Assembly: GCA_964016885.1 (NCBI GenBank)
Contig: OZ024751.1
Span: 18,352,001 to 18,416,000 of the forward strand
Reading direction: 5' to 3'
Length of the DNA: 64,000 nucleotides
DNA from: Eledone cirrhosa
Taxonomy: Eukaryota
The notes beneath the pieces are model-generated. The model did no database searches, had not been told where the DNA came from, and saw nothing but the letters and a program-made list of their open reading frames with translations. The position numbers and the translations under genes are program-made. This document shows, piece after piece, positions 3,841 through 61,697 of the stretch; the stretch's first letter is position 1; each line of letters starts with the position of its first letter.

Positions 3841-3961
3841 TAATATAGAAAAGGCTTCTACAGGACTAGAACTGTTTCATTCGGGAGAAACCATCTGGGG
3901 CTTCCTGATGATTTCTCCCGAATGAAACAGTACTAGTCCTGTAGAAGCCATTTCTATATTA
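3841..3961. mobile_element. Family A palindromic HHR element (PLE pLTR-like)
   Basis: ~55 bp inverted arms around a short loop, right end runs into (TA)n. Confidence 0.8.
3899..3949 (+). ncRNA. Type I hammerhead ribozyme motif (family A)
   Basis: GGCTTC-CTGATGA-T.TTC(TCCC)GAA.T-GAA-ACAG(TACTAGTC)CTGT-A^GAAGCC: stems I, II and III all pair, GUA cleavage triplet. Confidence 0.8.
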
Positions 3962-4142
3962 TATATATATATATACGGGATAACAGATTATTGTTATAGG
4001 TAGTCCACTTAGGTGTAGTCCAGTTAGGGTACTCCGAGTAGTGGATGGTATCAACGCTTGGATAAGTTTGACTCAACCTTTTTTGTATAGCAAACCGTGT
4101 CCCTCTTCTTTCTTGATATATATATATATATATATATGTATA

Positions 4143-4310
4143 TAGGAAAATGTTTAACCCCGACGGCAGAGCTCAAGCCGTTTGGACGACTATATCCAGA
4201 GCTCTGCTGTCGGGGTTAAACATTTTCCTATTACCCACTCTACTACCCTAAGTATTGAGTACTCTGGTGCGTTATGGTCTATCTGGTTCCATACCATTAT
4301 TCCTTCGTTA
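4143..4310. mobile_element. Family J palindromic element (3' half-HHR)
   Basis: Inverted CCCCGACGGCAGAGCTC arms plus the shared tail CCCACTCTACTACCCTAAGTATTGAGTACTCTGGTGCGTTATGGTC, between (TA)n tracts. Confidence 0.75.
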
Positions 4311-4326
4311 CGTATATATATATAAA

Positions 4327-4542
4327 TTTTGAGTATATGTTGGTTGTTTACCAACACCTCAGTATGTAGATTGGAGCACTCGACTAAGTACGCAGGTTGG
4401 TTGGTACGCAGGTTGGTTGGTTTACTCCAAGAAATAACAACACAACCAGGAGCTGGGCATATCGATGTATTGACGGAGTAAAACACACTTCAACAACATG
4501 TGTACCTGTCTTTCCCACACCAATTCCGACTGCCTGAAGAGG
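4327..4542 (+). mobile_element. Family K element, ends within the HHR core
   Basis: Homologous to 35449-35748. Ends ACTGC-CTGAAGA-GG (4529-4542). Confidence 0.65.
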
Positions 4543-4814
4543 TTTAATTATTTTATATATATATATGTGTGTGTGTGTGTGTATATGTATACATATATGT
4601 GTGTGTAAATATATTTATATATAAATATACATATATATGTGTATATATATGTATACATATATGTGTGTGTGTATATATATTTATATATAAATATACATAT
4701 ATATGTGTATATAAATGCACATATATGTATATATATGTATATATATGTCTGTGTATACATTGTGTGTATATATAATGTATACACACACATGTTATATATA
4801 TATATCATTTGGTC

Positions 4815-4970
4815 GGTGCTTATCACGGTTTCATGGCGTGAAGCAACTGAGAGTACAAGACTCCCCCTTGGACAGGACGCCAGTCAATCGCAGGGTTAAA
4901 CCTCCAGCTATTGTTGGTACTTATTTTCAGCTGAGTATACTGGAGCAACGTGAAATGAAGTGTTTGCACA
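4815..4970 (-). mobile_element. tRNA-SINE fragment (3' part)
   Basis: Reverse complement matches the body of the SINE at 55238-55500. Confidence 0.65.
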
Positions 4971-5511
4971 ACACTCGTACCACGTGCCTCCACTATATAT
5001 ATATATATATATATATATATATATATATATATATATATATATATTGAGAGAGAGAGAGAGAGAGAGAGAGAGAGAGACTCTTCCCACCCACCAAACGAAA
5101 ATTGTTTATCAGTGCGTACAATAAGGAACATGTATGTTTGTGTAAGGATTATGGAACATTGAAGATATAAAACAAGGGTGGCTGAGTATATTGTTGTGAA
5201 GATGGCGGGTGGGAGTGGTGACGATGGGGTGGTGGGAAGAGTGGGAGTTGGGACGAAGGGGTGGTTGGATGGGTGGGAGTTGGAACGATGGGGTTGTTTG
5301 GATGGGTGGGAGTTGGGACGAGGGGGTGGTTTGACGGATGGCTGTGATTTGAGTATGACAAAAATGATGTGGGAACAGTAAGAGTAGCTGTAAGAGGATG
5401 TGTTATTGGTGAAATATGAAGAGGCAGCGATGGGTAGTAGGTAAGGGTGTCTAGTTGTGGCCTGAGGTCTGTGATAACATAGGTATCTATATGTGAGTGA
5501 GTTTGTGGGCG

Positions 5512-59661: not shown

Positions 59662-59707
59662 ATATATATATATATATATATATATATATATATATATATA
59701 TATATAT

Positions 59708-59923
59708 GTAGGAGGTGAGTTTTATTGTAGTACAATAAAGCAATGCAGATATCGGATAAGAAGCACTCTACAGTTTGTAAGACTGGAGTATACATAATAT
59801 ATAAGATCAAAATATGGTTAAATGAGTTCCATGTATTTTATTATGCGCATTTCAAAAACAAATATCATCATGCAATAACATTTGTGTTTTCATCAGATAA
59901 AATAGGAAGACATGATATGAAGG
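59708..59923 (-). mobile_element. Family D element
   Basis: Homologous to 60906-61136. Confidence 0.8.
59834..59904 (-). ncRNA. Type I hammerhead (family D)
   Basis: TATTTTAT-CTGATGA-AAACACAAATGTTATT...GATGATATTTGTTTTT-GAA-ATGCGCAT-A^ATAAAATA. Confidence 0.78.
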
Positions 59924-60229
59924 TCTACAACATCAAAATATTTTTATTGGCTTACAATGTTTCTTCCTTACGTAACCGTAGTATTCGTCAGAGCTATATA
60001 TATATATATATATATATATATATATATATATATATATATATATATATATATATATATATATATATGCGTGTGTGTGTGCGTGTGTGTGTGTATTAGGCAC
60101 TGCTTAAACTGTACATGATCAACAAATAAATTCACTGAACAACCAGCAAACACCAGAATCAACAATAAAAACGACAACAACACCAGCTGTCGAAGCAACA
60201 AAAATAGCAAAATAAACAAAATTTACTGA

Positions 60230-60560
60230 AACAACAACAACACGAACAACAATAACAAGTGCAACAACAACAACTAAAACTACAACTATTACCATTACTA
60301 ATACAAGTACTACTACTACCACGACTACAAAAACTACTACTACTACTACTACTACTACTACTACTGCTACTACTACCACGACTACAAATACTACTACCAC
60401 CACGACTACAAATACTACTACTACCACCACCATGACTACAAATACTACTACTACTGCTACTACTACTACTACTACTACTACTACCATCACTACAAATACT
60501 ACTACTACTACTACTAACATGACTACAGCTACTACTACTAACACTAATACTAGAATAACA
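60230..60560. repeat. (ACT/AAC)n microsatellite
   Basis: Directly visible. Confidence 0.9.
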
Positions 60561-60905
60561 ACACCATCACCAGTACCAATATCCAACTGCAGCAGCGACA
60601 TCTACAATATAAACAACAGCAGCAACAGCACCATTAGCAATAACAGCTGCAACAGCTATAAAACTGCAACAGTAACAGCTAGAACAACATGGGGTGGTTG
60701 TACTAGGTTTTAGTACACGGTTACTCACGTAATATGGTTGCATGTTTGTGTGAGCTGCAAGTCAAACATGAATGGAACTTGTATAAATAGCTGTGGCTGG
60801 CTGTGGTTTAGTTTATTTTAGTTTGTTTAGTATAGTAATGATTATTTTCTTTATTTCTTAGGAATTATTTTCTTTATACACGTATATATATATATGTATA
60901 TATAT

Positions 60906-61340
60906 GTAGGAGGTGAGTTTTATTGTAGTACAATAAAGCAATGCAGATATCGGATAAGAAGCCCTCTACAGTTTGTAGGCCTGGAGTATACATAATATAT
61001 AAGAACAAAAGATGGTTAAAGGAGTTCCATGTATTTTATTATGCGCATTTCAAAAACAAATATCATCATGCAATAATATTTGTGTTTTCATCAGATAAAA
61101 CAGGAGGACATGATATGAAGGCTAAAAAACACTTGTGGATACCTTAACGGTTCAAGTTTTTCTTGAATAGAAAAACTTGAACCGTTAAGGTATCTTTTCT
61201 TGGTTATGTCAAAATTTATAAAACAAACTTTGTATTTTATCTGATGAGAACGTACCAAAGTTTTGGTACCCTTGAAATATATATAATAGAATAATTATGG
61301 TTTTATAAATATAGTTTCCATTTATTTATTATCATTGAAT
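60906..61340. mobile_element. Family D (minus) joined head-to-head to family C variant (plus)
   Basis: HHRs at 61032-61102 (minus) and from ~61233 (plus). Junction hairpin at 61137-61193. Confidence 0.75.
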
Positions 61341-61351
61341 ATATATATATA

Positions 61352-61697
61352 TTATTTCTGAAGACGGCATATGTATGTGTTGGTATGTATATTAAATTTG
61401 ATAGTTTGTATAATTTTGTATAATTTTGTACATAGATCTGTTGAATATACATGCCAATTCTAACACATATATGTCCTAGAAACGATCGTTAAATAATGAA
61501 CTTTTTTTGTTTAATATAAGGAACTGTTTCATTGTTTTATTCATTATTTTTTTAATACTTTATCTTGACTCTGTATTCCGTTTATCTTTCACCGAAAGTG
61601 ATTTTTGAATGCATCTCTTCTTTCCATGATATCCGGATTACATTGAGTTCTTCATACGGATTGGACACTACCGTAAACTCTTGGTAGATTTATCTAC
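61352..61697 (+). mobile_element. Family F solo arm with long-stem-II HHR (61353-61495)
   Basis: Homologous to 12162-12500, starts exactly at stem I. Confidence 0.8.

Follow-up and report, generated by a model that had tools for sequence, protein, structure and literature searches.

It is highly probable that most of the short islands lying between (TA)n tracts in a 64,000-nt stretch of Eledone cirrhosa DNA (the whole stretch that was analysed, hereafter the window) are 5'-truncated 3' ends, i.e. pLTRs with a predicted type I hammerhead, of many endonuclease-coding Penelope-like families inserted in (TA)n, the palindromic copies having likely arisen by two-ended priming on uncut RNA. The pattern is a known one, found in the window at unusual density, and the long-arm/short-arm shape of the islands likely records copying from both broken target ends. 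Altogether, about 50 insertions from about 17 families make up 11,003 of the 64,000 bases.

Hammerhead folds in the window

The presence of hammerhead-bearing islands between (TA)n tracts, as observed in the first-pass annotation, is confirmed. The core CUGANGA-N4-40-GAAA occurs 37 times on the two strands of the window, well above the means of 1.3-3.7 (maximum 9) obtained from dinucleotide shuffles run with three block sizes, 100 per size. While 27 of these matches sit in islands of hammerhead families (A 8, B 8, C 3, E/T 3, F 2 and G, H and L one each), the other 10 lie outside; family J adds three cores (12128, 12168 and 61358) with a stem II of 114-116 nt. The earlier estimate of about 29 full cores was therefore accurate, since it corresponds to the 27 family cores plus the three of family J. 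A strict descriptor found 18 complete type I folds versus 0.07 in shuffles (maximum 1), and a descriptor allowing a long stem II and variant cores found 22 versus 0.53 (maximum 2), all 22 predicted folds having the core boxes, stems I-III and an NUH site. GUA, AUA and CUU were the most frequent NUH sites among the 417 folds at all loci collected. The window (18 folds per 64 kb) is denser in hammerhead folds than the genome at large, as 38 stretches of 10 kb at round genome coordinates held 23 and the two 10-kb stretches adjoining the window none; extrapolation gives roughly 180,000 folds for the genome.

The insertions are listed below, with family letters that differ from those of the first-pass annotation.

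3839..3961, family A: head-to-head pair of arms, both tail-less; fold on + complete (core 3905), with cut predicted after 3943
4138..4312 (+), family D: stub with half a core and an inverted arm
4326..4543, family I: tail on - fused to inverted upstream piece
8682..9021, family F: short arm on - (one-change core, 8789), tailed arm on +
10234..10794 (+), family M: core decayed; intact relative at locus L079
11930..12500, family J: palindrome with a complete fold on each strand (stem II 116 nt; cores 12128 (-) and 12168 (+))
13572..13738 (+), family D: half core; one arm tailed, the inverted one short
19522..19703 (+), family N: pLTR of coding element; U3-A8-type variant core
23435..23599, family D: tail on - joined to inverted arm without overlap
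23727..23911, family A: tailed arm on - (core 23853), short arm
23943..24314, family B: palindrome; complete folds 24050 (-) and 24127 (+)
24357..24517 (-), family P: core halves in an order other than type I
24542..24966, family C variant: complete fold on - (24820), tail on +
25732..25928, family D: tailed arm on -, short arm
26016..26817 (-), family C: long arm without tail; disrupted coding sequence for a CX4CxxC linker and GIY-YIG endonuclease, plus 3' UTR and a complete fold (core 26207, cut predicted after 26173)
26858..27049, family A: tailed arm on - (26983), short arm (26991)
27103..27222 (-), family C: nothing but tail
27454..27786 (+), family M: decayed
30156..30321 (-), family B: tail, half core
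32382..32515, family K: short arm fused to tail
32558..32771 (-), families C and A: same-strand chimera of C fold (32693) and tail-less A arm (32624)
33428..33593, family A: short arm on - (33481), tailed arm
33628..33820, family D: palindrome; junction within stem II
34191..34381, family D: palindrome; junction within stem II
35318..35438 (+), family B: tail-less arm; complete fold (35332)
35448..35751 (-), family I: copy with tail; core altered
35964..36090, family D: tail and inverted arm without overlap
36437..36620, family A: palindrome; complete folds 36558 (-) and 36567 (+)
36853..37054 (-), family D: tailed arm; fold-back in stem II
37642..37955, family O: palindrome; pLTR of RT plus GIY-YIG element; U3-A8 variant core
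37981..38478, family G: palindrome; complete fold on - (38188)
38586..38756 (+), family B: tail-less arm; complete fold (38649)
39459..39868, family B: palindrome; folds 39647 (-) and 39806 (+)
39877..40095, family K: palindrome; U4A core on - (39942); pLTR of apparently intact Hydra-type element
41787..41912, family A: tail and half-core inverted arm
41965..42129 (-), family E: single arm (core 42075)
42156..42333 (-), family H: complete fold (42251)
44925..45100 (+), family T (E-like): single arm (core 44992)
48643..48982, family B: tailed arm on -; fold complete in the short arm (48875)
58858..59109 (+), family E: single arm (core 58987)
59478..59660 (+), family D: palindrome, decayed
59708..59994 (-), families L and F: L core (59991; sole copy in the data) before tailed F copy (59896)
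60906..61345, families F and B: tailed F arm on - (61094) head to head with tail-less B arm on + (61241), the arms meeting through a 26-bp fold-back
61353..61697 (+), family J: tailed copy; complete fold, 114-nt stem II (61358)

Of these families, D lacks the first half of the core in 9/9 copies in the window. As anticipated, such islands are overlooked by Rfam, whose Hammerhead models gave no match in the window at gathering score; genome-wide, 18 of 74 scored candidates reached that score, all from families absent from the window. An E-value scan of the window was uninformative because the 150 matches listed, of 647, were simple-repeat artefacts. Across 40 rows of family A, 95.8 % of stem positions were paired, with 13 double-change cells versus 3.4, and the double changes were confined to two pairs, a number attained in 411 of 500 shuffles. 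Among the 45 commonest stem III inserts, 19 distinct ones were fully self-complementary, which is partly inherent in the descriptor. The predicted pairing of stem I was 0.00 in five of five whole palindromic copies and merely 0.00-0.37 in six single arms; the palindromic copies are probably dead as ribozymes, since their hammerhead is predicted to be buried in a long hairpin.

Coding parents of the families

Eight families (B, C, D, F, J, K, N and O; 29 of the 50 insertions) continue upstream, in the genome or within the window, into the 3' end of endonuclease-coding Penelope-like elements, which bears out the proposed Penelope-like origin of the islands as pLTR remnants. By motif, the traced elements appear to be of the Hydra and Neptune types. 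Family K is, to judge from its sequence, a young element with intact pLTR-ORF-pLTR copies: its fold lies downstream of the endonuclease at 29 of 30 loci, mostly about 945 nt away, the pLTR-ORF-pLTR arrangement was seen at loci L295 and L296, and at least 150 copies share 98-100 % amino-acid identity. The unit of about 3.3 kb, including a 0.95-kb 3' UTR, encodes a protein of 708 aa with DKT, a CxCX5C linker, CxxC and CxH motifs and, at its C-terminus, a GIY-YIG-type domain; the protein was not recognised in a Pfam search. The parent of family O gave an RVT_1 match slightly below the cut-off and a GIY-YIG match. Together, O (RT plus GIY-YIG) and K (pLTR-ORF-pLTR) exhibit the EN+ Penelope layout of a single ORF between pLTRs; for B, C, D, F and J the endonuclease end alone was observed.

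Families N and O adjoin GIY-YIG loci, and the translations of C, N and O have the CX2-5CxxC linker of Neptune elements ahead of GIY-YIG, the endonuclease of C being found both within the window and at locus L040. For family F, the fold was present at 27 of 30 loci, with a same-strand endonuclease upstream at 22 of 30. The parent of family B is a sister subfamily, distinct from the window's own B variant, with the fold at 28 of 30 loci and an endonuclease motif upstream at 11 of these. The assignments of J (1 of 16 loci) and D (L199, identical to L292, where a complete core follows the endonuclease at a distance of about 1.2 kb) come from one locus each. A short-gap search for the D core gave 59 matches, those inspected being chance junctions, and the gap proved too short; about 9 true complete cores were among the 90 matches of a wider search.

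Arms, junctions and the origin of the palindromes

The architecture described earlier, i.e. 3' ends fixed against (TA)n, a tail and frequently an inverted second arm, was seen, supporting (TA)n targeting; the (TA)n flanks would conceal any target-site duplication. The placement of the hammerhead near the 5' end holds for the stubs, where truncation has removed the remainder, but not for the parents, where it belongs to the 3' pLTR. Each family has two fixed 3' ends, one of a tailed and one of a tail-less arm, and 150 of 168 head-to-head pairs joined one of each kind (A 67/72, D 47/50, K 20/25, C 9/13, B 5/5, F 2/2, E 0/1). This rule is weaker with 14 references, 142 of 239 same-family pairs being full plus short and 46 full plus full in a count given without breakdown by family, in which one reference (Q) was of low complexity at its end and two lacked a short class. 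The tails are 50-141 nt long, which is the distance between the putative near and far start sites, and a hairpin just downstream of the near one is common to unrelated families.

Junctions were distinct in 14/14 A, 19/20 D and 8/8 K pairs with both anchors found (of 20, 27 and 22), and the arms of a pair have rare variants in common (A 8, D 5, K 14, B 8, C 53, versus 0.2-3.4 under random re-pairing). The copies form a ladder of 5' truncations whose 5' ends are concentrated in a narrow zone in A (40/59) and D (66/88), without a pile-up at the predicted cleavage site, as 9 of 360 arms begin within 4 nt of it. The 5' truncation, inverted 5' copy and optional tail of EN+ Penelope-like elements are thus all present. 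No A-to-G excess indicative of RNA editing was found in arms of A, D or K, and that in family C (A>G 38 vs G>A 29) is not convincing as editing.

From the two 3' ends, the junctions made per insertion and the few 5' ends at the cleavage site, we infer two-ended priming on uncut RNA. The element endonuclease would cut both (TA)n strands, whereupon one broken target end would prime at the far start site and yield an arm with tail. Priming from the other would begin 50-141 nt upstream, at the near start site, and leave the arm tail-less. Both copies would stall early, often inside the hammerhead or just before it, and short self-complementary stretches would then serve to unite them head to head. 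The parents' self-complementary stem III suggests that they may be cleaved as dimers or with the aid of a protein. Such dimer or protein-assisted cleavage is known for other Penelope-like elements; Lunse et al. reportedly described dimeric cleavage in 2017. In vitro, a lizard Penelope-like protein is described as cutting and extending both strands, with two start sites bounding the tail and uncut RNA as template (PMC11167929). Counting against the main reading, the narrow 5'-end zones of A and D could also stem from a short source RNA, and the variants shared by both arms could arise by later gene conversion.

Those shared variants, together with the perfect palindromic junctions and the 26-bp fold-back within 60906..61345, would equally suit pLTR remnants in which each palindrome is one cDNA that folded back and copied itself up to the near start site; self-priming, which yields identical palindromes, has been proposed for inverted pLTRs (PMC3846280). 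We consider this rather unlikely, as it leaves unexplained the family-specific end of the short arm, which also ends long ORF-containing arms, the copies in which tail and inverted arm do not overlap (23435 and 35964) and the mixed-family junctions (8 excluding those with the low-complexity reference Q, 5 of them full plus short, mostly from loci chosen by a pattern enriching for them).

The first-pass annotation had also offered retrozyme-like non-autonomous elements, which the data do not support as the principal interpretation given the eight coding-linked families, the truncation ladder and the lack of tandem families in the window. No ORF was linked to A nor, as far as the window shows, to E/T, G, H, I, L, M, P and Q, and all of these may have a non-autonomous source. 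For A, 36 of 40 upstream stretches match a long UTR over about 70-1,400 nt, none of the 40 enters coding sequence continuously, and this region, rich in microsatellites, has no coding sequence over 1.4 kb or more. That some of these families are true non-autonomous RNAs, retrozyme- or SINE-like and copied in trans by Penelope-like proteins, would also suit the narrow 5' hot spots of A and D, and non-autonomous Penelope derivatives have been published (PMC8557442; 10.64898/2026.07.22.740005). Nevertheless, it is unlikely: arm ends do not coincide with cleavage sites, these families form no tandem units in the window, every family followed far enough upstream except A reaches an endonuclease, and, of the first 100 among 338 exact A matches, 68 retain the parent-type bases on the upstream side of the hot spot. 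A fixed 5' end or palindromic master for A was dropped after comparison of copies, junctions and upstream sequence, and a 5' motif shared across families was rejected because it is internal in longer copies.

One may further speculate that stem III is an RNA dimerisation signal loading two uncut transcripts on a protein dimer, both target ends being copied together from the far and near start sites marked by the conserved tail hairpin, with cleavage secondary. If true, Penelope-like elements would have a two-template step resembling that of retroviruses, which would account for the palindromes as well as the retention of the hammerhead; the idea seems quite improbable, considering that mixed-family junctions unite families with differing stem III sequences and that the shared rare variants suit one template equally. 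Finally, the short, palindromic and TA-flanked islands are hardly conceivable as MITEs with terminal inverted repeats, TA target duplications and an incidental hammerhead motif, a reading that the annotation had rejected and that is already refuted for the traced families, since the inverted repeats are neither fixed nor terminal (the tail falls outside), arm length and junction are made anew copy by copy, a second arm is absent from many copies, there is a gradation from copies to retro-element ORFs and folds are about 40-fold or more above shuffles.

Comparison with known systems

Metazoan Penelope-like pLTRs are described as holding minimal or small type I hammerheads (Cervera and De la Pena 2014, PMC4209133). 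Like those, the present ones fall into many families per genome, are mostly single motifs from truncated elements and include opposite-strand pairs 100-700 bp apart, palindromic helices III and the U3-A8 core variant. In contrast to the descriptions there, several families here have no G10.1-C11.1, one has a stem II of 114-116 nt and a young one U4A, and the extrapolated total compares with about 2,000-9,000 counted per genome. Family K resembles the Hydra clade (Craig et al. 2021, PMC8557442) in its DKT, CxCX5C, CxxC and CxH motifs, C-terminal GIY-YIG-type domain, pLTR hammerhead and (TA)n insertion, but differs from that account in having RWR (L294 and L295) or LWR (L298) instead of RWK, a unit of about 3.3 kb with its 0.95-kb 3' UTR instead of generally <3 kb, at least 150 near-identical copies, and, as for the other families here, tails longer than 30-40 bp. 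The families do not appear in the available text of PMC8557442 and PMC8967140, though the supplements of the former (Hydra families, hammerheads) may include cephalopod members.

The islands' head-to-head copy, one-arm tail, palindromic junction, AT-rich target and presumed use of uncut RNA as template are also described for inverted pLTRs whose tail is optional (Arkhipova et al. 2013, PMC3846280; Craig 2021, fig. 2 legend) and for the anole Poseidon element with its two RT start sites (Frangieh et al. 2024, PMC11167929); what differs here is that the rule of one tailed and one tail-less arm was counted in six families and that the tail hairpin is common to unrelated ones. Metazoan non-LTR retrozymes (Cervera and de la Pena 2020; Li et al. 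2026) are likewise short, AT-rich, Penelope-related and equipped with a type I hammerhead. While they are described as tandem units, about 150-450 bp each and arranged head to tail, that are processed into circles (PMC7229834; 10.64898/2026.07.22.740005), the islands are single or head to head and run on into coding elements, the window holds no head-to-tail array with a hammerhead per unit, and eight families have the coding parent that a retrozyme should lack.

Publications already describe hammerheads in pLTRs, the targeting of (TA)n, inverted pLTRs with or without a tail and a pair of start sites, whereas the scale (roughly 180,000 folds per genome), the longer tails, the fixed U4A core and the shared tail hairpin are new. 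Since the general phenomenon is in print, the value lies in scale and testability and not in a new kind of system: the E. cirrhosa genome holds on the order of 10^5 predicted hammerhead folds in dozens of Penelope-like families, missed by Rfam and liable to be hidden by simple-repeat masking, and K, an apparently young and intact Hydra-type element with a natural U4A core and mapped start sites, offers a ready substrate for asking how Penelope-like inverted ends form and what their hammerheads do.

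Hammerhead folds between the (TA)n tracts

The window, octopus-like in its make-up, contains 266 (TA)n tracts, spanning 7,015 bases, and around 50 insertions belonging to about 17 families (our letters A to T), which occupy 11,003 bases. The two-box hammerhead core occurs 37 times, compared with 1.3-3.7 times in shuffles, and hammerhead-family islands hold 27 of these 37 matches. Together with three additional cores of family J, this bears out the first-pass annotation, which had counted about 29 cores by eye. A strict descriptor found 18 complete predicted type I folds (0.07 in shuffles) and a wider one 22 (0.53), i.e. 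both core and folds are far above dinucleotide-shuffled sequence, the comparison proposed there as a check. The family J fold (window 11930-12500 and 61353-61697), with a stem II of 114-116 nt, lies beyond the usual descriptors.

At the gathering score, Rfam gave no hammerhead match within the window, and 18 of 74 scored genome-wide candidates pass for Hammerhead_1. Thirty-eight 10-kb stretches at round coordinates contained 23 folds, i.e. around 60 per Mb, which extrapolates to roughly 180,000 folds in the 3.0 Gb genome, the counts being clumped. With 18 folds in 64 kb, the window is therefore around 4-5 times denser than the sample, while the two 10-kb stretches adjoining it hold none.

Conservation of the fold was assessed for family A in 40 rows (37 taken from 77 distinct forms, plus three window copies; the omitted forms are mainly short arms with a junction-derived stem I strand). 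In this set 95.8 % of cells are paired and 13 show double changes, compared with 3.4 in shuffles; since these are confined to two pairs, which 411 of 500 shuffles reach as well, the support is at the subfamily level. Of the 45 stem III inserts seen most often in 417 folds from all loci, 19 are self-complementary throughout and vary from family to family, the descriptor requiring only part of this self-complementarity. Modelled thermodynamic support for the hammerhead fold is weak: predicted stem I pairing was 0.00-0.37 across six single arms, and for all five whole palindromes it was 0.00.

In family P the CUGANGA box lies downstream of a hairpin and the GAAA box, the post-core strand is complementary to a stretch around 90 nt upstream, and around 20 copies were found among the sampled loci. 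Repeats R, S and Q, also (TA)n-flanked, are without a core within the window, a complete fold of Q being present elsewhere in the genome. An abundant SINE-like repeat of around 190 bp is present in at least 11 copies, and a core immediately behind one of them, which falls outside the named families and whose 4-nt insert in stem III is self-complementary, possibly represents another family.

Further features of the window
24357-24517 (-), 25301-25667 (+): family P
2681-2872, 42582-42997: repeat R
22208-22262: repeat S
58762-58830: repeat Q
15088-15115 (+): core behind SINE-like repeat
14919-15093, 17754-17943, 20510-20707, 36152-36348, 40840-41036, 43448-43619, 43786-43982, 54227-54417, plus fragments: SINE-like repeat
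56888-57757: transposase remnant between 101-bp inverted repeats, which we take to be Mariner-like by its motifs
53669-54196 (-), 62353-62724 (+), 1229-1600 (-): fragments that, by their motifs, look like two restriction-like endonucleases of non-LTR type and a Rep protein of Helitron type
5513-7842: 18-bp satellite, 130 copies
17229-17750: 261-bp dimer
30776-31387, 46708-47312: 608-bp repeat, 95 % identity, recurring at other loci

Links to coding parents

A first look gave 10,595 GIY-YIG candidates genome-wide. Within the window, family C at 26016-26817 (-) continues into a broken CX4CxxC linker and GIY-YIG domain. Of 30 loci with a Hydra-type endonuclease, 29 carry the family K fold downstream, and the order hammerhead-ORF-hammerhead is seen at L295 and L296. 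The K protein (708 aa) has DKT, CxCX5C, CxxC and CxH motifs, matching the Hydra description in PMC8557442. Pfam gave no recognised match for this protein. Family K comprises at least 150 near-identical copies (98-100 % identity), and most of these young copies have an A at core position 4 (U4A). This young Hydra-type element has open frames of 700-760 codons at L298:4244-6367 (+), L295 and L296.

All nine window copies of family D are without the first core box, and about 9 of 90 genome matches have a complete core; one such copy (L199, the same locus as L292) continues into an endonuclease of Hydra type. For a sister subfamily of B, 28 of 30 loci contain the fold, 11 of these 28 with an endonuclease motif upstream, and family F has the fold in 27/30 and an upstream endonuclease in 22/30; for family J the latter holds in 1/16. 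Families N and O, with the core variant U3-A8, adjoin GIY-YIG loci, and the O parent matches both RVT_1 and GIY-YIG. The suggested search for parents with reverse transcriptase and GIY-YIG thus links eight families (B, through its sister subfamily, C, D, F, J, K, N and O) to endonuclease-coding sequence. They comprise 29 of the 50 insertions, the remainder being 7 of family A and 14 of untraced families.

Family A copies form a graded, microsatellite-rich ladder extending at least 1.4 kb upstream, along which no ORF was reached. At L367, the A upstream region adjoins an N-terminal coding fragment of Hydra type (51 % identity to K) around 260 nt upstream of the core; this locus possibly represents an A parent with an internal deletion.

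Ends, arms and origin of the palindromes

In every family, the 3' end abuts (TA)n at either of two fixed positions, which are separated by a tail.

Tail length by family
A: 61-74 nt
B: 85 or 98 nt
C: 56 nt
D: 77 nt
F: 81 nt
G: 93-96 nt
I: 93-100 nt
J: 134-141 nt
K: 85 nt
O: 51-55 nt

Head-to-head pairs join a tailed to a tail-less arm in 150 of 168 cases, a count whose family A set includes loci chosen with a palindromic query; in a wider run this was so in 142 of 239, with 46 pairs of two full arms. A 4-bp stem starting 5-12 nt into the tail is found in 4 of 12 tails, i.e. A, B, D and one family from outside the window, the last with a compensatory change, and visual inspection suggests a similar stem in K, F, I and J. 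This hairpin is a candidate start signal.

At loci not chosen for the family concerned, junctions were distinct in 14/14 A, 19/20 D and 8/8 K pairs, and rare variants are common to both arms far above random re-pairing. Only 9 of 360 arms start at the predicted cleavage site. In family A, 40 of 59 arms start at stem I, and in family D the start falls within stem II in 66 of 88. Taken together, these sequence patterns indicate that the palindromes formed upon insertion, each from a single source of RNA that had not been cut. In the simplest mechanism, both target ends would prime copying, at the two start sites of the family, as was demonstrated in vitro with the Poseidon protein of the anole (PMC11167929). 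Alternatively, palindromes could be made by fold-back self-priming, as put forward for inverted pLTRs (the pseudo-LTRs of Penelope-like elements) in PMC3846280.

Mixed-family junctions (window 60906-61345 and eight others in the wider run) suggest that two RNAs were occasionally used, and deletion between neighbouring palindromes could also produce them. Same-strand chimeras were seen at window 32558-32771, L252 and L021 (C with A, A with I, A with E), the join in two of them falling at or close to the core box; these chimeras likely arose by template switching.

Relation to known elements

Much of this architecture has been described: pLTR hammerheads, single or opposite-strand motifs of truncated elements, palindromic helix III and U3-A8 (PMC4209133), inverted pLTRs with an optional tail (PMC3846280, PMC8557442) and Hydra targeting of (TA)n (PMC8557442). 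The islands had initially been read as pLTR remnants or retrozyme-like elements. The former reading is supported by the grading of eight families into endonuclease-coding elements. In contrast to retrozymes, which are tandem units (PMC7229834; bioRxiv 10.64898/2026.07.22.740005), the islands are not tandem, and the latter reading is not supported, although it may apply to untraced families. The window presents a dense and well-preserved set of a kind already known, with new members and a few testable extras.
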